From: a virus
Lineage: Duplodnaviria > Heunggongvirae > Uroviricota > Caudoviricetes
IMG/VR virus record: IMGVR_UViG_3300045988_033906
Span: 1-31,280 of that record
Direction: 5' to 3' (one strand)
Length of the DNA stretch: 31,280 nt
Below are positions 2,922 to 24,699 of this stretch, one piece after another. The translations under genes were made by a program, and so were the position numbers. The notes beneath the pieces were generated by a model that was not told the origin of the DNA, did not search any database, and saw nothing but the letters and a program-made list of their open reading frames with translations. Positions within the stretch are counted from its first letter, which is position 1, and every line of letters starts with the position of its first letter.

Positions 2922-3219
2922 GTTGAGACCTCGATATTTTGAATATCTGCACGACGTTACCGCGCGTCTTCAGGACGGCGGCAAGCATGACAGCGTTGAT
3001 GATGACCTCTGATAAATCAGCGGCCATTGGCGTGTGATACCAGATTGCGTATGCGGCGCGGACGGGGATACTGGCTGACGCCACGATAAGGAAGTAGGCT
3101 ATCCACCCACCCCACCGGCGATGTTGCGATCCATTTCGCCGGAAGGTTCCGACGCGGATTGCTATCGCAGAACAGATAACCGCATTGGCAATGAGTAAAA
3201 GCAGCTCATGAGTTGTCAT
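2911..3219 (-). CDS. holin/antiholin-like small membrane protein
   Basis: 102 aa with about three hydrophobic segments; RBS GGGGAG before ATG at 3219; overlaps endolysin start by 11 nt; position immediately upstream of endolysin. Confidence 0.5.
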
Positions 3220-3610
3220 CGTCTTTTCTCCCCGGGATTAAATCGCGTGGATTGTCTGAACGGTGATAGAGCCAGATACCAATACGTACTGCGACGATTG
3301 CCGACACGAACGCGCCAGCAGAGAAGACGATCCCTTTCTCGAAAGAGTCCTGCGTGATAGTTGGGATCAGGCTGGCTACGCCGATAAGGATTGATGCAGT
3401 TGGTTTGTAGAAGAGAAGCCCGCATAAAAAGCTGAGCATCGACAGGAGAACCCGGCGGCGTATTGGATACTCAACGGCTGAGGTAATAAATATTACCGCA
3501 CCAGATAAAGCACCAAGCGCCACTTCGGGAGGAACTCCGGCGACAACTGCAGCCAGTGAACCCATGCTAAGCCACTGATTTAAAGACTCACTGGTTAGCT
3601 GGGCTGACAT
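3206..3610 (-). CDS. holin-like membrane protein
   Basis: ORF-track start at 3619 is GTG; first ATG at 3610 (MSAQLTSES...) preceded by GGTGG; 134 aa with several hydrophobic segments; first gene of lysis cassette. Confidence 0.5.
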   Translation of the reverse strand: MSAQLTSESLNQWLSMGSLAAVVAGVPPEVALGALSGAVIFITSAVEYPIRRRVLLSMLSFLCGLLFYKPTASILIGVASLIPTITQDSFEKGIVFSAGAFVSAIVAVRIGIWLYHRSDNPRDLIPGRKDDDNS

Positions 3611-3781
3611 AGTGACCACCGTTTACTGTGCATAAAAACCCCCTTAGTTGGTGAGTTCATCATACACAATAAACCATATATGGAGTAAATTACCTAAGAT
3701 AACTCCTACCAAAATTACCTTTAAGGTGATATGCTCTGTACAATTATTAATATACCGATAAACAAATAGTGAAGAAATATA

Positions 3782-4873
3782 ATGTTTACACCATCAATTA
3801 TTTCTATTGCATTCTCTTTGTCTATAATTATATTTTTTATAGCTTTAACTTATCCTGTTAGGAAATTAGTATATCAAAACGAAAAATTAAACCACTCAAT
3901 TGAAGGGCTCAGGGGTATCGCATGTATACTTGTATTTGTAAATCACTCAGCATGGATGCTGACAAACAATCATGTTGAGTCTGCAAAAATTGATTATACA
4001 AACTTCAATTATTTTGGTAATTTTGGTTCATTTGGGGTTGAATTATTTTTCTGTATAACAGGGTATCTTTTTTCTTCAAAAATAAAAAGTGGTGAGTTTG
4101 ATATAGAATTCTTTGGTAAGAGGATTAAAAGACTGGCGCCAGCTTATTTATTTGTGTCATTAATAACATTTATTCTTTTTATTGTAAAATACAACAATCT
4201 AATAGTTACTTTTGATGATATATCAAGAGTTATACAGCAGATATTTGGGTTTGGTTTTTTTGGTTCTGGAATTAGAGTGCAGGGTAGCACAATAACATCT
4301 CTAAATGCTGTGGTGTGGACGTTACCTTTCGAATGGAAGTTTTACGCAGCTATACCATTTATAGCATATTGCTTTAGAAGAAGAACAATTCTAATACCAT
4401 TATTTATATTTTCATTCTTTGTTATATATTCTCAGTACGCTGAAGATAATACGCTGTGGGTGTACTTTATAACTGGGTTTATCTGTTCTTATATTAAACC
4501 ATGCAAGAATAAAATTCTTTGTTTTGCATGTTCTATATCAGCTCTAGTTCTGATTATATATATTATATTAAGTAACTATTATCAATACAGCGCAATGAGG
4601 GTTATACCTATTAGTGCATTTTTTATTCTTTGCGTTTTTTCCAATCCAAAATGGATAAAAATAAAACCATTATCAATTGCTGGAACTCTTAGTTATAGCA
4701 TATATCTAACACACCAAGCGGCAATGTTTTGCATTGTTAACATAGCAAGCATTTTATTTAATGATTTTGATTTCACAACAGTCCATTTATTAATCTTAGC
4801 AATTATTTCAGCAATTTTAACGATTATCGCATCATTGCTCTTATACTCTAAGATTGAGAGAAGGTTTATCTAA
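3782..4873 (+). CDS. acyltransferase family 3 integral membrane protein (O-antigen acetyltransferase-like, candidate seroconversion gene)
   Basis: 363 aa, about 10 hydrophobic helices; N-terminal AT3 signature with conserved Arg/His (IEGLRGIACILVFVNH); gene is strikingly AT-rich compared with flanking phage genes; opposite strand to the late operon, between tailspike and lysis genes (typical moron slot). Confidence 0.8.
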   Translation: MFTPSIISIAFSLSIIIFFIALTYPVRKLVYQNEKLNHSIEGLRGIACILVFVNHSAWMLTNNHVESAKIDYTNFNYFGNFGSFGVELFFCITGYLFSSKIKSGEFDIEFFGKRIKRLAPAYLFVSLITFILFIVKYNNLIVTFDDISRVIQQIFGFGFFGSGIRVQGSTITSLNAVVWTLPFEWKFYAAIPFIAYCFRRRTILIPLFIFSFFVIYSQYAEDNTLWVYFITGFICSYIKPCKNKILCFACSISALVLIIYIILSNYYQYSAMRVIPISAFFILCVFSNPKWIKIKPLSIAGTLSYSIYLTHQAAMFCIVNIASILFNDFDFTTVHLLILAIISAILTIIASLLLYSKIERRFI

Positions 4874-4908: not shown

Positions 4909-7018
4909 AAATGTGACAAGTAAAACTTAGTTCTATTGTTGCATTTCCTGTAATTAAATCAGATATTAAAACATCAACTGGGCTGCCAGACCTAAAAATC
5001 CTTCTAAAAAATATTTTACCCCCACTTATGTATCCTTGCACATCAAGAAGGTTTGAATCAGTTCTTATTGTATTGTTTAATATTGGTATAATAGATCCAA
5101 CACAATCACCTTTGAAAGAACTTAAATATGTAGGTAATGATATAGCAAAAGCTAAAGATCCAGTATTGCTGGTGATGTTGCATGATATTGAAAGTCTGCC
5201 AGTAACACTTCTTTGGGTAATTTCATGCCTATAAATCTGAGATGTGTATGTGCAAGGTGCGTTTATTGTTGGGTTGAACCCAGTTGACTGAGGGAAAACA
5301 TAGAAGCTTTGTAAGTTACCACCAGACACAGTGGTATTGATTGGTGTTGCTGAACCAGCAAACACATATACTCCATCATCTTCTATACCAGAAACATCAG
5401 AACTAACTGGTTCTTTAATGTTATTTTCTGTCCCGCTAATATAAAACACCTTTCCATACTTAGGACCATCATTAACATGAAAAAGAACTCTTGGACCAAT
5501 TAGGTTGTTATTGAAACCAGATATTACATACCCAATCCCACCGTTAGATATACTGGCTGGTTGCGTCTTGTCAAGTTTATGCGGGGTGTCAGAATAAAAA
5601 TTAACAACATTATTTGAGCTGCCTCCTAGTTTTAATCCTATCAACATTACGCGTGTTGTTCTTATGCCATCCAGTCCCCATACATGCGTATTAACTATAT
5701 CATTGGCCCCACCTGTTATTTCCATACCGACAGGATAACCAACCACTGTAGTATTAACATACATACTATCAGACGTACGATGCAATATCCCACTAACGCC
5801 AGATGTTCCAAGCTGGTCTTCCGGAGCTACAACTGATGTATTATTGAATTTCCACTCATAACCTTTTTCAACATTAATACCTCCATTTAGCATGTTGAAT
5901 ATTCTTGCGTTATTTATTACAGGACCAACGCCATCAGTACCATAAATACCTATCGCAGAGACAGATGAGTCAGGCTCAATATACAGATTATCAAGTAGAA
6001 CCCTGTTACCAGTCTGAATGGCTGTTATTCCATCATTGTATGGAGCCCTCCAAGCATCATCCTTTATCTCTATAACAACCGTATCAGTAAAATTTTTTGG
6101 AACAATGGAACCGATATTCTCCATTCTCGCTCCACTTTTCAGAACAAGCCGAGAAGATATACATGTTTTACCAATGAATAATACAGCTCTTTTATTATCT
6201 GAAGACCAATCAAGAGCTTGCTGATTAGGAATGGTATCATCATCAATACCATTGCACTTAGCTCCAAATGAACGGTTTGTAATACAATCGGTCAGCACAT
6301 CTTCAACAACTCTAGTTGGAAATCCAGCAGGGCCAAATCCAATCAACCCTGCACCGGTTGGTTTTGCCAGCTCAATTAACACATCGGTGGCGCTACCTGA
6401 TGGGGGTAATGTTGTAAACGGCTGGCCAGCGCTATCAAAAGCAACAATTTTGTTTGCCCTGGAAATCGCATCAGGAAGAGCTTGAATAGCTTCAGGTGTT
6501 CTTAGTGTTTTGTTGAGGTTTGTATCCGCAACGCTATCAACATAATTTTTTGTTGCCGCATCCTGCGGGCGTGAAGGATCTCGCAGGTTTCTGATGTAGT
6601 TATTAAGAGCATCATAATAGTTAGCCACGAACGAAGGCTTTCTGAGGGCCAGACTCAACAAGCTGCGTACCTGCTGTATCAGCATCGTCAGTTTATCAAA
6701 TGCGTCTTCATGCACCTCAGCGAAGAACTTACCCTGGTTGCGCAGATCGGTTTCCTGCGTAACCGGTAGCTCTCTTGATATAGAAATCTGATAACCGTTA
6801 GCCAACGCCTTCGACAGAATTACATTACCACCGTTATACCCTCCCGCCCCGGTAACTGTGTAATCAGTATCAAGAGCAAGAACAGTGATATTTTCATCAA
6901 GGTCAACCACTTGCACTACCAGATCAGATTTCTGGAAAATCCTGAAAGTATACGGAAATGATGTCGTAACGCCGTTACCGGTGTATTCGTTGTGGTCAAC
7001 TTCGGTTGAGACCGTCAT
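4907..7018 (-). CDS. tailspike protein: T7 gp17-like N-terminal particle-binding domain fused to a beta-helix (polysaccharide depolymerase-like) receptor-binding domain
   Basis: 703 aa; N-terminus (MTVSTEVDHNEYTGNGVTTSFPYTFRIFQKSDLVVQVV...DTDYTV) follows the conserved pattern of podovirus tail-fiber N-domains; remainder Gly/Asn/Ser/Thr-rich repeats typical of parallel beta-helix; RBS GGAG before ATG 7018; 3' (C-terminal) half is AT-rich like the adjacent acyltransferase. Confidence 0.85.
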   Translation of the reverse strand: MTVSTEVDHNEYTGNGVTTSFPYTFRIFQKSDLVVQVVDLDENITVLALDTDYTVTGAGGYNGGNVILSKALANGYQISISRELPVTQETDLRNQGKFFAEVHEDAFDKLTMLIQQVRSLLSLALRKPSFVANYYDALNNYIRNLRDPSRPQDAATKNYVDSVADTNLNKTLRTPEAIQALPDAISRANKIVAFDSAGQPFTTLPPSGSATDVLIELAKPTGAGLIGFGPAGFPTRVVEDVLTDCITNRSFGAKCNGIDDDTIPNQQALDWSSDNKRAVLFIGKTCISSRLVLKSGARMENIGSIVPKNFTDTVVIEIKDDAWRAPYNDGITAIQTGNRVLLDNLYIEPDSSVSAIGIYGTDGVGPVINNARIFNMLNGGINVEKGYEWKFNNTSVVAPEDQLGTSGVSGILHRTSDSMYVNTTVVGYPVGMEITGGANDIVNTHVWGLDGIRTTRVMLIGLKLGGSSNNVVNFYSDTPHKLDKTQPASISNGGIGYVISGFNNNLIGPRVLFHVNDGPKYGKVFYISGTENNIKEPVSSDVSGIEDDGVYVFAGSATPINTTVSGGNLQSFYVFPQSTGFNPTINAPCTYTSQIYRHEITQRSVTGRLSISCNITSNTGSLAFAISLPTYLSSFKGDCVGSIIPILNNTIRTDSNLLDVQGYISGGKIFFRRIFRSGSPVDVLISDLITGNATIELSFTCHI

Positions 7019-7121
7019 GTTAAATCTCCAGATAGTTGCAGCACCCGTTGCGCCGCATATCTGGTTATTCTATTACCTGAAAAACCACATATGGATAGAA
7101 AGACTGTAAATACGAATAGAT

Positions 7122-7138
7122 ATTACCTTTCTGGTAAT
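7122..7138. promoter_or_regulatory. perfect inverted repeat ATTACC-N5-GGTAAT (candidate operator), copy A
   Basis: ATTACCTTTCTGGTAAT at 7122-7138; same IR architecture recurs at 23733-23747 and 30377-30393 (and weaker at 30316-30330); about 40 bp upstream of the LexA box. Confidence 0.4.
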
Positions 7139-7176
7139 TTGCAAAACGTGCTGGATAGCAAACAAATTATTTGCTA

Positions 7177-7192
7177 CTGTATAAATATACAG
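7177..7192 (+). promoter_or_regulatory. LexA (SOS) box overlapping probable promoter of the 85-aa gene
   Basis: taCTGTATAAATATACAGtt matches the enterobacterial LexA consensus TACTGTATATATATACAGTA at 18 of 20 positions; contains TATAAAT (-10-like); RBS GGAG at 7202-7205 and ATG at 7214 follow. Confidence 0.65.
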
Positions 7193-7213
7193 TTATTGCA
7201 TGGAGAAGATAAG

Positions 7214-7471
7214 ATGCAGCAGTATCACTATCCACTGGAAGACGGATTTACCGAAAGGATTCACACGCCGGGAGGCGTCAGGTCACTGGTGGAGGGATCG
7301 CACTTGATGAAATTACTCCGGGATCTCGATAAGGATGGATTTAATGTCGATGGCCCACTTGCCGAACTGACTGCACTGATTAACTACGTCACCAGCTCAC
7401 AGATGTCTATGCAGGATCTGCAAACACATCTCGACTATTGTGCCGAACAATTACGAAAACAAACCACATAA
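7214..7471 (+). CDS. SOS-regulated small protein of unknown function (85 aa); candidate antirepressor-type moron
   Basis: ORF-track frame 7091-7471; internal ATG at 7214 has RBS GGAG 8 nt upstream and sits just downstream of the LexA box; MQQYHYPLEDGFTERIHTPGG...; no homolog recognised; opposite strand to the late operon. Confidence 0.6.
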   Translation: MQQYHYPLEDGFTERIHTPGGVRSLVEGSHLMKLLRDLDKDGFNVDGPLAELTALINYVTSSQMSMQDLQTHLDYCAEQLRKQTT

Positions 7472-7477
7472 AGAAAA

Positions 7478-7493
7478 GGCCGCGAAAGCGGCC
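7478..7493 (-). terminator. rho-independent terminator (minus strand; may also stop the + strand moron)
   Basis: GGCCGC GAAA GCGGCC hairpin; on the minus strand it is followed by TTTTCTTTAT; lies between the 46-aa minus-strand ORF and the + strand 85-aa gene stop (7471). Confidence 0.55.
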
Positions 7494-7494
7494 T

Positions 7495-7506
7495 GTGACA
7501 TGTCAC
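7495..7506. repeat. 12-bp perfect palindrome GTGACATGTCAC, copy 1 of 3
   Basis: Identical 12-mer also at 24688-24699 and 27139-27150; here it lies between a stop codon and the terminator hairpin. Confidence 0.5.
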
Positions 7507-7513
7507 GCTCACG

Positions 7514-7654
7514 TTATGACAAACCTATATACCCTGCTACACCAGATAATATCAAAACAACTGCAACAGCAAATTCACCATCACCAATGATACATTTACG
7601 GTTCATAACGCCAAGTGCAACAAGAGCGAACACAACGAGAATAAAAGCAATCAT
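7514..7654 (-). CDS. unannotated 46-aa hydrophobic micro-protein (two predicted TM segments)
   Basis: Below ORF-track size cutoff. ATG at 7654 with AAGGA about 6 nt upstream, immediately after the stop (7664-7666) of the 824-aa gene; translation MIAFILVVFALVALGVMNRKCIIGDGEFAVAVVLILSGVAGYIGLS; followed by the palindrome and terminator. Confidence 0.45.
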   Translation of the reverse strand: MIAFILVVFALVALGVMNRKCIIGDGEFAVAVVLILSGVAGYIGLS

Positions 7655-7663
7655 TTCTCATCC

Positions 7664-10138
7664 TTATTGCGGAGTGACATCCTGCGGTCGCCACCAGTAT
7701 GTCTGATTAAACTCTTTCTTCGAACGTTGCTCCATTTTACGCAAATAGCCTGGTGAAAAATACTCCTGCATCTGGTTAAAGATCATGTGATCGAGAGCCG
7801 CCTTCAAGTACCAGAGATTCGCACCTGGCATCAGCCCCTTCCCAAGCTTAACCAGATCACCACCAGTCTGCTCATTCTTCCCTTCCACAGCATTTAACGG
7901 TATGCCCTGAGCAATCTTCACTACGTCATCAACCAGACCAGCTACCGGGCCAAGCATCGACGCCAGCGCGCCGCTTCCGTACCTAGTGTGATCTGACAAT
8001 AAAAAGTCACCGTAAAGGCCAAGACCACCACCTTTCAGTAGAGCACCAAGCCAAAATTTAGCAGCATCTTCCCCCGTCATCTCGCGAGGATTACGACCAG
8101 ACGCAAGGTCGTTAAGTTGCTGCGACAAAGCGCCAAGAATGGTCGTACTGGCAATAAACGTCGCAATATATGCCGCACGCCCACCAGCAGACGGCATCCC
8201 CATAGCGCGTGACCAGTGACGCATAACAACCGAGATAGGGAACGATTTAAACAGGAAAACACTTCTCGTTAATTCACCTTTCCATGTTCCACGCTGAATA
8301 CCAGAACCGGTTATCAGTTGCTCACGTGCTCCCGGTGTAATAACAGCCATATCAATTTCTTCAGTTACGGCACCGAGCAGTTTACGCATTGCCTCAAATT
8401 TCACGCGTTCAGGCTCACCAAGATGTTTAACTGCTGAATCAGGGATACGCATAATGCTTTCCGGTGTCAGCATCGTATTATTACCGTTCCCCCAGTCCTC
8501 CTGTTGCGCCAGCTTCCATACGCTCCAGTCTGTGTCAGTAATCCCTTTGCTTTTCAGGATACGAAAATCAGAGTCATCGAGGCTACGAAGGTCTGGTGTC
8601 CGTGACACTACTTCTCCCAGGCTTCCCATCATAGTTACGCCATAGGCGCGCTTGTGCGCATCTGACCATGCTGTAAGCCCACTGGCACGCATTACCGCCG
8701 TTGCCGCCCAACGAGACACAGACGGCCCCATATTATCCATCGCCCAGCGGTTAACGCTGCCAAGTAGAGATTCCATCGCCAGACCAGCTCGGCGCGCCCG
8801 CGCAAGCTCAGTACGGTTCGTTGGGTCAATAGCTTCAAGCTGGTTGCGGAATAACTGGTTCATTGGAAGGTTGGTAACCTTCGCAGACAGATACATGGTT
8901 CCAAGATCAGAGAACGATGACAGCAACGCGGATCCGAGTCTGCTGGCAACCAGCCAGTTGCGGATATTGTCAGACCATCGCGCGATGTGCGGATTCGCTA
9001 CAGGCTGTGTCTTTCCGGAAATAAAGTTGTACAGATTCTCTGTGTTGTTCGCCAGCCGCTCGACTTTACCGGTTTTACTCGGGTTAGCTGTTGCCGTTTC
9101 TGCCTTAACCTGATCAAGAAGGGAGCGGAAAACATGATCGGGGTTTGGACCATATGTTTCCACCAGTGCAATATCTTTACTGATACCTTCCAGGTGACCG
9201 ACCATGATTTCCCATAGAGAGCGATCGCCATAAAGTTGCTGATATTGCAGATAGGAATCTGCATCTTTGAAATGTATCTGTCGTGATGCATTACCACGGT
9301 TAGCACGTGCGCCGGAAATTCGCATTCCGGTATCAGTAAGCTTATTCAGCCCACCAGTAGCGATCGTGTTATAAGCCTCTCCAAGAAATGCAGACAACTC
9401 GGCATCGTTCATCAGTTGTCCATCGGCTCGGATATAATATTTGCGATCCAGCTTACCTATAACATCGCTAACCCACTTATCCTTTGATACCGCCCCAACC
9501 TTTTCCATAGAATGATGTTGAGGGATCCCCCAGTTTTCGAGATAGCCAATGTCCCCACCAGCATCATTAAACCGGCGGCGCAGTAGCTCTGTCACTTCTC
9601 TCCACGCCTTAGCACCTTTTCTTGCTTTAGCATTGCCAGTATTTTGCCCCCGCATTTCATATACCAGGTCACGTACGCCCGCTTCATCTTCAAACAGACC
9701 AAAAAAGCGAGGATCAACTGCTTCGAATGCCTCCTGCAATTGACTCAATGCATAATCACGGGTGGCTTTTGTTCTGGATTCAACAGAGAGGAAATTCGAT
9801 TTACCGTCTGCATTAAAAGCAATAGTACGGTTAAGAGCGCCAAGTTTCCCATCAGCCCCTTGATAGCTATTGATAAATTTATCCAATCTCTGACGTGCGG
9901 CTATAGTGAGGGCCACACGACGTTTCTTTAATGCCGCTTCTCGCTGTAATTCTTCAGATGCCAATTGTGCTGCACGATATAGCCGCTCTGATTCGGAAAG
10001 TTGTCTCCACGACATCGTGTCATCACGAGCAATGGAGCGCATATTTCGATAAATGCGGTCTTCAATGTTCTGTATTTCTCGCGCCGTTAACGTGCGCTGC
10101 GCCGCCTGCTGGACCGCTTGTATACATTCCTGTCTCAT
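7664..10138 (-). CDS. internal virion / ejection protein (large)
   Basis: 824 aa; RBS GAGAGG before ATG 10138; last of a run of large genes between tail tubular genes and tailspike, the position of T7 gp15/gp16-type core proteins; no enzymatic motif recognised. Confidence 0.7.
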   Translation of the reverse strand: MRQECIQAVQQAAQRTLTAREIQNIEDRIYRNMRSIARDDTMSWRQLSESERLYRAAQLASEELQREAALKKRRVALTIAARQRLDKFINSYQGADGKLGALNRTIAFNADGKSNFLSVESRTKATRDYALSQLQEAFEAVDPRFFGLFEDEAGVRDLVYEMRGQNTGNAKARKGAKAWREVTELLRRRFNDAGGDIGYLENWGIPQHHSMEKVGAVSKDKWVSDVIGKLDRKYYIRADGQLMNDAELSAFLGEAYNTIATGGLNKLTDTGMRISGARANRGNASRQIHFKDADSYLQYQQLYGDRSLWEIMVGHLEGISKDIALVETYGPNPDHVFRSLLDQVKAETATANPSKTGKVERLANNTENLYNFISGKTQPVANPHIARWSDNIRNWLVASRLGSALLSSFSDLGTMYLSAKVTNLPMNQLFRNQLEAIDPTNRTELARARRAGLAMESLLGSVNRWAMDNMGPSVSRWAATAVMRASGLTAWSDAHKRAYGVTMMGSLGEVVSRTPDLRSLDDSDFRILKSKGITDTDWSVWKLAQQEDWGNGNNTMLTPESIMRIPDSAVKHLGEPERVKFEAMRKLLGAVTEEIDMAVITPGAREQLITGSGIQRGTWKGELTRSVFLFKSFPISVVMRHWSRAMGMPSAGGRAAYIATFIASTTILGALSQQLNDLASGRNPREMTGEDAAKFWLGALLKGGGLGLYGDFLLSDHTRYGSGALASMLGPVAGLVDDVVKIAQGIPLNAVEGKNEQTGGDLVKLGKGLMPGANLWYLKAALDHMIFNQMQEYFSPGYLRKMEQRSKKEFNQTYWWRPQDVTPQ

Positions 10139-21448: not shown

Positions 21449-21745
21449 TCACTCCTGTTCACTGGCCTCTTTGGCCATCTTCAAATACTGTTCAGGGCAA
21501 TGCGCCATAACGCGCTGAAACAGTTCCAGAGCCAGATTGCGTTGCCCCTCATTAAATGCCATTGCCATAGCGTCCATCGGCGAGATAGCGGAAAACACAC
21601 GGCCTTTCTCCAGTACCGACCAGACAACCCGACGCCCCTGTTCACAGCTCATGACAAAGCGAATGTCATCAATTTCACGCTGTGCCATGTCACGTTGCTT
21701 ACGGGCGTTTTCTTCTTTCAGTTGATCGTCTTCGTAATCTGTCAT
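21449..21745 (-). CDS. hypothetical small protein between portal and scaffold
   Basis: 98 aa; ATG overlaps portal stop (ATGA); charged helical protein; no function recognised. Confidence 0.5.
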   Translation of the reverse strand: MTDYEDDQLKEENARKQRDMAQREIDDIRFVMSCEQGRRVVWSVLEKGRVFSAISPMDAMAMAFNEGQRNLALELFQRVMAHCPEQYLKMAKEASEQE

Positions 21746-24687: not shown

Positions 24688-24699
24688 GTGACATGTCAC
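24688..24699. repeat. 12-bp perfect palindrome GTGACATGTCAC, copy 2 of 3
   Basis: Lies 4 nt after the stop codon of the Gp49-like gene and just before a terminator hairpin, the same stop-palindrome-hairpin arrangement as copy 1. Confidence 0.5.

Follow-up and report, generated by a model that had tools for sequence, protein, structure and literature searches.

A translationally coupled micro-protein gene with two predicted transmembrane helices in an exchangeable slot behind the last ejection-protein gene of a Uetakevirus prophage

Gene content of the locus

The window analysed here, i.e. the whole stretch of 31,280 nucleotides, is an E. coli prophage of the genus Uetakevirus (epsilon15/phiV10/SPN1S-like). 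[quoted passage not shown] The protein is 99% identical to PhiV10p20, 94% to Tyrion gp18 and 28% to epsilon15 gp17, and hydropathy places Gly/Ala-rich hydrophobic segments at residues ~620-745. According to Hardies et al. (PMC4819975), epsilon15 gp17 is homologous to IVP-D of T7, and gp15 and gp16 are homologous to IVP-C.

Immediately downstream, also on the minus strand, lies a 46-codon coding sequence at 7654..7514 (stop included), referred to below as the micro-ORF, which was delimited from the ORF list and the sequence, matches phrog_7892 and is predicted to encode a two-helix inner-membrane hairpin protein. It starts with ATG at 7654-7652, ends with TAA at 7516-7514, and its product is MIAFILVVFALVALGVMNRKCIIGDGEFAVAVVLILSGVAGYIGLS. 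Eight bases after the stop lies a perfect, strandless 12-bp palindrome, GTGACATGTCAC (7495..7506), and directly next to it stands the intrinsic terminator of the ejection-protein operon (7494..7467, minus strand), as detected by a terminator scan and RNA folds. The terminator is composed of the hairpin AGGCCGC-TTTC-GCGGCCT followed by a TTTCTTTATG tail. The hairpin itself (7494-7477), with 7 bp and GC-rich, is followed by TTTCTTT and is recognised as an intrinsic terminator in the minus-strand reading only; in the RNA fold, its plus-strand reading is without a U-tract. In ~48 of the 56 loci collected for the conservation analysis below, a conserved stem carries a variable loop, and no Rfam match was found in 6800-8200. 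An earlier reading made from the sequence only had described a ribosome binding site, an ATG and a 46-codon ORF directly after the 824-aa gene, with a palindrome and then a terminator behind it, and all these elements are present on the minus strand as described.

Convergent to the micro-ORF, on the plus strand at 7214..7471, is an 85-aa gene resembling epsilon15 gp19 and SPC32H ant, as derived from the SPC32H annotation ('ant: anti-repressor protein') and phrog_450, with a weak match to the anti-repressor family phrog_1760. Upstream of this ant-like gene there is a near-consensus LexA box, CTGTATAAATATACAG, at 7177-7192, in line with the suggestion that the micro-ORF is convergent to an SOS-regulated gene, as well as an epsilon15-type repressor operator at 7123-7139 (the epsilon15 operator, for comparison, is ATTACCTTACAGGTAAT). 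The order in the window is hence gp17 homolog, micro-ORF, ant-like gene, tailspike and O-antigen acyltransferase, and in many relatives 1-3 kb of other genes are found between ant and the micro-ORF. A complete lysis cassette, consisting of two holin-family genes, an endolysin and an Rz-like spanin, is located at 3619-1813, beyond the tailspike and acyltransferase genes and ~4 kb from the micro-ORF.

The micro-ORF is a protein-coding gene and the last cistron of the late operon

The micro-ORF is joined to the upstream gene by a translation-coupling junction (7666..7655, minus strand), in which the Shine-Dalgarno sequence AAGGA (7665-7661) shares bases with the TAA stop of the 824-aa gene (7666-7664) and is followed by a 6-nt spacer and the ATG, so that the gap from stop to start amounts to 9 nt. 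The junction sequence TAAGGAT(G) is kept in 54 of 56 copies; in the other two, which are the most divergent (L053 and L054), other sequences, GAGG and GGGAG, provide a purine-rich Shine-Dalgarno. In every locus that extends far enough upstream, 9-10 nt separate the start from the preceding stop. A consensus-based scan, which may miss weak promoters, yielded no sigma70-like promoter upstream of the micro-ORF. Because it has no promoter of its own and the terminator follows directly, the micro-ORF is tied to late transcription and not to prophage expression, and since it has the orientation of the late operon and is coupled to it, its expression in a lysogen is not evident. The conserved position, the ribosome binding site and the terminator show that the micro-ORF closes the late ejection-protein (internal virion protein) operon of this Uetakevirus prophage, as the sequence-only reading had claimed, and that it is a late-operon gene translationally coupled to its upstream neighbour.

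A promoter embedded in the 3' end of the gp17 gene was also considered and set aside; the consensus scan shows none there, and the low synonymous diversity of this region is a weak hint only. Over the last 40 codons this diversity is 0.75 of expectation (resampling P ~0.002), with another window reaching 0.77, and a ribosome binding site or a recombination junction could fit the reduction equally well.

Concerning the coding capacity of the micro-ORF, its GRAVY of 1.84 stands out against 1.06 for the next most hydrophobic among the 63 ATG ORFs of 40-70 aa in the window. The conservation sample comprises 56 DNA copies, 25 distinct intact alleles of which were used for the codon-position analysis. 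The frame is intact in 47 of the 56 copies (coding for 46 aa, except for two divergent ones with 48 aa); the nine altered ones show frameshifts or stop loss, and in seven of these the change is confined to the C-terminal one to six residues. Neither start nor stop varies among copies. The variable columns at codon positions 1, 2 and 3 number 20, 10 and 30, respectively, distributed over the whole ORF, and the pooled pS of 0.237 versus a pN of 0.058 results in a pN/pS of 0.24. Against the most distant copies (L053 and L054, 70% identity) the values are a pS of 0.83 and a pN of 0.17-0.20. The micro-ORF is a real protein-coding gene under purifying selection, and the conservation and synonymous-site bias proposed earlier as a check both point this way.

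It should be noted that the antisense frame sharing the wobble positions has a pN/pS of 0.22, by necessity the same ratio as the sense frame. The corresponding plus-strand ORF of 88 aa (7440-7706) was rejected as a gene, its start, length and stops being inconsistent among relatives: depending on the relative, the frame spans 44 to 228 codons and begins at different places, and stop codons interrupt it in phiV10, L053 and L014. It could be argued, from this shared ratio and from the nine disrupted copies, that no functional protein is made and that the frame is open only through DNA or RNA constraints at a cassette junction and terminator region. We regard this as extremely unlikely in view of the third-position-biased variation along the whole ORF, the excess of pS over pN at 70% identity, the constant start, Shine-Dalgarno and stop, the confinement of most alterations to the very C-terminus and the inconsistency of the antisense ORF.

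The predicted structure agrees with the two-helix membrane protein anticipated in the sequence-only reading. Besides the hydropathy, an AlphaFold run with the family alignment yields a helical hairpin with helices at residues 2-19 and 25-45 (pLDDT 92.6). The hydrophobic helices are separated by a tight, highly conserved turn, N-R-K-x-I-I-x-D-G-E, and this turn with its flanks (N18 R19 K20, I22 I23, D25 G26 E27 F28) is the most conserved part of the protein. Small-xxx-small motifs often mediate helix packing, and helix 2 contains such motifs (SGVAGYIG). The C-terminus reads ...GYIGLS, with zero charged residues after E27.

Homologs of the micro-protein are 72-96% identical, and the whole protein is covered by phrog_7892 (hmmscan E=1.2e-31, residues 1-46 of a 46-position profile), a family of unknown function. 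The family is narrow in range, being found in E. coli, Salmonella, Citrobacter and Hafnia, and an exhaustive profile search among 1.84 billion proteins returned only 5 representatives at 50% identity, all of them this same small protein. Pfam, NCBIfam and PADLOC contain no significant match, defence or immunity models do not match either, and a Foldseek search against the PDB retrieved generic helical hairpins only (E>1). The term 'unannotated' given to the gene earlier is correct for the ORF track on which that reading relied, but not for the public records. RefSeq WP_172907443.1 is identical to the product in the window, PhiV10p21 of phiV10 (AAZ95943.1) is annotated as 'putative integral membrane protein; two predicted transmembrane helices', SPC32H_019 (AGR48757.1) carries the same name, and WMX19000.1 of PAS61, like the RefSeq E. 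coli records, is labelled 'hypothetical protein'. These members share with the micro-ORF the length of 46 aa, the two predicted transmembrane helices and the place between the gp17 homolog and the terminator; they differ from it in nothing of substance, and the records give no function. No experimental or functional study of the gene was found in the searchable literature. The feature is hence already known as an annotated protein of unknown function, and the micro-ORF as given, being the rediscovery of an annotated hypothetical membrane protein, adds little. Its interest lies mainly in the architecture of the slot that it occupies and in the palindrome.

An exchange slot bounded by a conserved palindrome

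In all enterobacterial Uetakeviruses examined, the first gene after the gp17/IVP-D homolog encodes a small protein with two transmembrane segments, although the families are unrelated. The 46-aa protein occupies this place in the window, phiV10 and SPN1S, whereas epsilon15 has the 64-aa gp18 (AAO06081.1, phrog_29212), Tyrion an unrelated 103-aa two-transmembrane protein, gp19, behind a 94% identical gp17 homolog, and E. coli GF4 and Klebsiella BUCT711 an unannotated 57-codon ORF with a GTG/TTG start together with a 98-aa protein (phrog_3075). Like the micro-ORF, all of these are coupled to or overlap the gp17 stop, encode small two-transmembrane proteins and are bounded downstream by GTGACATGTCAC and a hairpin; lengths, loop charges and tails differ, and the proteins belong to separate PHROGs. 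Profile comparison gave no homology among the slot families (hhalign probability <1%). A common origin, prompted by a loop pattern that they share (basic-K-G-aliphatic ... acidic), was discarded on these same hhalign probabilities.

Alignment shows sharp homology breakpoints: similarity ends at ...CCGCAATAAGG, comprising the gp17 stop and Shine-Dalgarno, and resumes at CGTGACATGTCAC and the hairpin. The flanks of GF4 are 99% identical to the window with the cassette replaced, hence this exchange must be recent. Among 5426 complete E. coli genomes, 317 contain the gp17 3' end, 53 with the micro-ORF cassette and 216 with the alternative cassette. Slot families can also be combined, as seen in one divergent locus (L067), where a 92-aa protein of the Tyrion type is followed by a 45-aa homolog of the micro-ORF. 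The IVP-D of that locus has 1129 aa and aligns with the 824-aa protein only over the hydrophobic C-terminal ~200 aa, at 26%. The distant family members there and in L066 are in the same context, after IVP-D and before the terminator.

A same-strand gene for a small transmembrane protein follows IVP-D in 8 of the 16 lineages sampled, including, outside the enterobacterial group, Pseudomonas Shamal, Acinetobacter 4316 and Stenotrophomonas BUCT709. No such gene was found in BcepC6B, YeP4, Flu_PA14_4, VP5, Skadi-3, DU_RP_II, Vibrio 1.182.O and SC2. The absence from some lineages implies that it is an accessory gene and does not belong to the core of the ejection machinery. As judged from these comparisons of sequence, the micro-ORF gene occupies a modular, exchangeable accessory slot. 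This architecture, with its sharp breakpoints, a palindrome that supplies stop codons and two main cassettes in E. coli, would explain how such genes are shuffled.

The right-hand boundary of the slot is the invariant palindrome, which is present behind every cassette type, and the TGA inside it is the stop codon of the last cassette gene in GF4, BUCT711 and epsilon15. The window contains three perfect copies, at 7495, 24688 and 27139, and 5 matches when up to 2 mismatches are allowed, versus 1.24 expected from shuffles. Each of these perfect copies lies between genes, is on the late strand and is linked to a terminator. One follows the exchange slot, a second comes after a gp49-like regulator gene (phrog_536), upstream of terS, and the third after terL, where a hairpin and a convergent PF13876 gene lie next to it; epsilon15 has copies at the same syntenic sites, and the phiV10 record contains two of the three. 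The palindrome carries no annotation in the records examined, nor was its sequence found in the searchable literature. Its role may be that of an operator connected with termination or read-through, or that of a conserved junction for recombination; it may also serve as both.

Possible functions and comparison with known systems

Small membrane proteins encoded beside ejection-protein genes are candidate superinfection-exclusion or self-immunity factors, and to our knowledge P22 SieA is the only mechanistically studied case in podophages. By analogy with it we tentatively favour, with a probability of roughly 0.3, that the micro-protein is a late-made inner-membrane antagonist of ejection-protein conduits, SieA-like in its action and not homologous to SieA. 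In an infected or induced cell, the hairpin would enter the inner membrane while the ejection proteins are made, and there it would interfere with the membrane insertion or conduit formation of IVP-D-type ejection proteins. The producer would thus be protected against the membrane-active ejection proteins that it makes itself, and superinfecting relatives would be prevented from injecting their DNA. The position of the micro-ORF, always directly after an IVP-D homolog, even in L067 where the latter is so divergent, speaks for such an antagonist, and so do the predicted membrane hairpin, the late, coupled expression and the accessory nature of the gene. Several points count against it: a protein of 46 residues exposes hardly any surface outside the membrane by which a partner could be recognised specifically, such a gene is missing from half of the IVP-D lineages, and there is no evident route of expression in a repressed prophage. 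Moreover, the pairing of unrelated proteins with the same gp17 argues against a tightly co-evolved interaction. Of the three functions suggested by the sequence-only reading, i.e. pinholin-like, exclusion or toxin-like factor, exclusion would be the most plausible.

The hairpin could instead serve assembly or the virion, made in fixed ratio with IVP-D and either escorting the hydrophobic C-terminal region of the latter during morphogenesis or being packaged and delivered itself to seed the inner-membrane channel. Such a helper would account for the late expression, the translational coupling to the IVP-D gene in all 56 loci and the presence of a two-transmembrane hairpin of one family or another first after IVP-D in every enterobacterial Uetakevirus examined. 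It sits badly, however, with the non-homologous proteins found behind IVP-D genes that are 94-99% identical and with the absence of the gene after IVP-D in 8 of 16 lineages (e.g. BcepC6B, VP5, Skadi-3 and DU_RP_II); an integral membrane protein would also be hard to load into a procapsid assembled in the cytoplasm, and virion proteomics of epsilon15 reportedly list gp15-17 and not gp18, all of which leads us to consider a helper unlikely. The mosaic behaviour of the slot, with alternative and combinable cassettes, the polymorphic prevalence in E. coli and the narrow taxonomic range with so few representatives would also be expected of another kind of accessory membrane factor of the moron type, one that modulates a host transporter, sensor kinase or secretion component and has no link to DNA ejection. 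But a gene without its own promoter and with a terminator directly behind it is bound to late transcription, and the post-IVP-D position is retained even in very divergent phages; we consider this explanation as unlikely as the helper.

Less probable still is a factor for lysis timing, in which a late two-transmembrane peptide oligomerises or binds the phage holins, in the manner of a holin, pinholin or antiholin. The micro-protein is small, late and has two transmembrane segments, as have the class II holins and pinholins, of which phage 21 S68 is an example. The small-xxx-small motifs of helix 2 would suit oligomerisation or binding of this kind, and the 98-aa protein of the alternative cassette weakly matches a holin family (E=0.027, sub-threshold). 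In contrast to those proteins, the micro-ORF does not adjoin an endolysin gene and its product lacks a charged C-terminal tail on the cytoplasmic side; a complete lysis cassette of the phage is present 4 kb away, and no holin family in Pfam or PHROGs matches the micro-protein, so the pinholin-like role proposed from the sequence was not supported. A type I-style membrane toxin, checked by antisense transcription from the convergent SOS-controlled ant gene, is very improbable. It would draw on the hydrophobicity of the micro-protein, on the LexA box at the convergent gene and on the shared hairpin, which is without a plus-strand U-tract, so that ant transcripts could run antisense into the micro-ORF. 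Nevertheless, ant is 1-3 kb away in many relatives and so the antisense arrangement is not conserved, the micro-ORF is coupled to a structural operon, no promoter of its own was detected, and neither an Rfam antisense or toxin RNA family nor a toxin family was matched, which leaves the earlier toxin-like suggestion without backing.

The idea of a conduit antagonist can be extended to the slot as a whole, in a form that we hold to be rather speculative and unlikely to be correct in full. The post-IVP-D site, from the gp17 stop and Shine-Dalgarno to the genus-wide GTGACATGTCAC and terminator, would then be a dedicated exchange slot for non-homologous inner-membrane hairpins, all neutralising ejection conduits and so conferring producer immunity and superinfection exclusion, as a late-coupled counterpart of SieA, while the palindrome would be an unrecognised operator for a phage regulator, e.g. 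the phrog_536 protein, controlling termination or read-through of the late operon.

The phages phiV10, SPC32H and SPN1S are in use as reporter and biocontrol phages, and a SieA-like action of the micro-protein would be of relevance for their engineering. If the 46-residue hairpin does the job of SieA, it would also provide a minimal model for blocking a phage DNA conduit.

The comparison with P22 SieA (NP_059639.1) deserves to be made explicit. The micro-protein shows no similarity to it (BLASTP E=47), the two share no PHROG or Pfam family, and the motif FxRYPxEAxxFNK of SieA types A-C does not occur in the micro-protein. SieA is 162-164 aa long with three transmembrane segments, and its family has about 160 aa and three or four such segments (PMC10883804); the micro-protein has 46 aa and two. 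An analogy extending to the same orientation was dropped, as the P22 annotation puts sieA on the opposite strand with its own promoter; P22 sieA is expressed from the prophage, whereas the micro-ORF runs in the direction of the late operon and is coupled to it.

[quoted passage not shown] It is up-regulated upon induction and was found in only 22 of 66 P22-like phages (PMC10883804). Both genes are accessory, being carried by some relatives only, and both have highly divergent alternative types. The sieA gene falls into the interval that separates the last ejection gene from the tailspike gene (Leavitt et al. 2024, PMC10883804), the gene order in P22 being 16, sieA, mnt/arc/ant, 9, gtr, and the micro-ORF of the window occupies the corresponding interval. 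SieA and, as predicted, the micro-protein are therefore alike in being inner-membrane proteins of temperate podophages encoded between the last ejection gene and a block of antirepressor, tailspike and O-antigen-conversion genes.

Cassette variation downstream of gp17

The slot that follows the gp17 homolog, i.e. the gene for the last ejection protein (IVP-D), is occupied by differing small membrane proteins. In the divergent relative L053 a 48-aa homolog of the two-helix hairpin is followed by an additional protein of 103 aa that bears a signal peptide at its N-terminus (3171-3482, same strand as the hairpin) and then by the convergent ant-like gene, an arrangement that is one more cassette variant. 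The micro-ORF itself carries a 1-nt indel or has lost its stop in 9 of 56 copies (L043, L045-L047; L044, L048, L049; L052; L059), the outcome being a C-terminus changed from residue 41, a product extended to 90 aa by read-through, or one cut short at 15 or 33 aa. Such copies may be sequencing errors or may reflect decay in defective prophages; L054, too, has a frameshift, in gp17.

Of 5426 complete E. coli genomes, 216 have an alternative cassette in the slot. Its first ORF, of 57 codons and with two TM segments, begins with GTG or TTG 9 nt 3' of the gp17 stop, and is absent from the annotation of both records compared, E. coli GF4 (~3770-3945, minus strand) and Klebsiella BUCT711 (3985-4158). 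Between these two pS is 0.47 versus a pN of 0.12, and therefore the ORF appears to be protein-coding.

A second family of membrane proteins encoded after IVP-D, of 92-103 aa, displays two TM segments and a conserved C-terminal tail, SLW[LI]KR[KR][KR]LE. It is common to Enterobacter, one uncultured enterobacterial phage and one Stenotrophomonas phage (34% identity, E=3e-11), its members being gp19 of Tyrion (4972-5283) and proteins of the uncultured enterobacterial phage (L067, 4668-4946) and of Stenotrophomonas BUCT709 (3133-3420), and in L067 it is found together with the 45-aa hairpin. Pseudomonas phage Shamal has an unannotated ORF of ~116 aa with two hydrophobic segments (4062-4412), flanked by the genes for the IVP-D homolog and the tail fibre.

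Synonymous diversity at the end of gp17

Across 42 alleles, the 40 codons at the 3' end of the 824-aa gene (window 7667-7786) show the lowest synonymous diversity in its 3' 1.8 kb, 0.75 of the same-amino-acid expectation (resampling P ~0.002). The signal is weak, since another window reaches 0.77. It could correspond to the micro-ORF translation-initiation region, a weak embedded promoter or the recombination junction.

A palindrome at three intergenic sites

The perfect 12-bp palindrome GTGACATGTCAC occurs in the window at 7495-7506, 24688-24699 and 27139-27150, always intergenic and terminator-adjacent, with near-copies at 21682 and 1805. Uetakevirus genomes carry it at the same three intergenic sites, each adjoining a terminator: between the gp49-like phrog_536 regulator and terS, 3' of terL, and 3' of the small-membrane-gene slot. 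Copies lie at 2142, 19517 and 39612 in epsilon15 and at 2262 and 19493 in phiV10, and in several phages the gene ahead of the palindrome uses the TGA within it as its stop codon. No record annotates it, and its sequence was not found in the searchable literature.

Sites upstream of the convergent ant-like gene

Upstream of the ant-like gene (7214-7471, plus strand) lie an epsilon15-type repressor operator, ATTACCTTTCTGGTAAT (7123-7139), and a near-consensus LexA box, CTGTATAAATATACAG (7177-7192). This pair of sites fits an antirepressor of the SPC32H kind, which is reportedly under SOS and repressor control.
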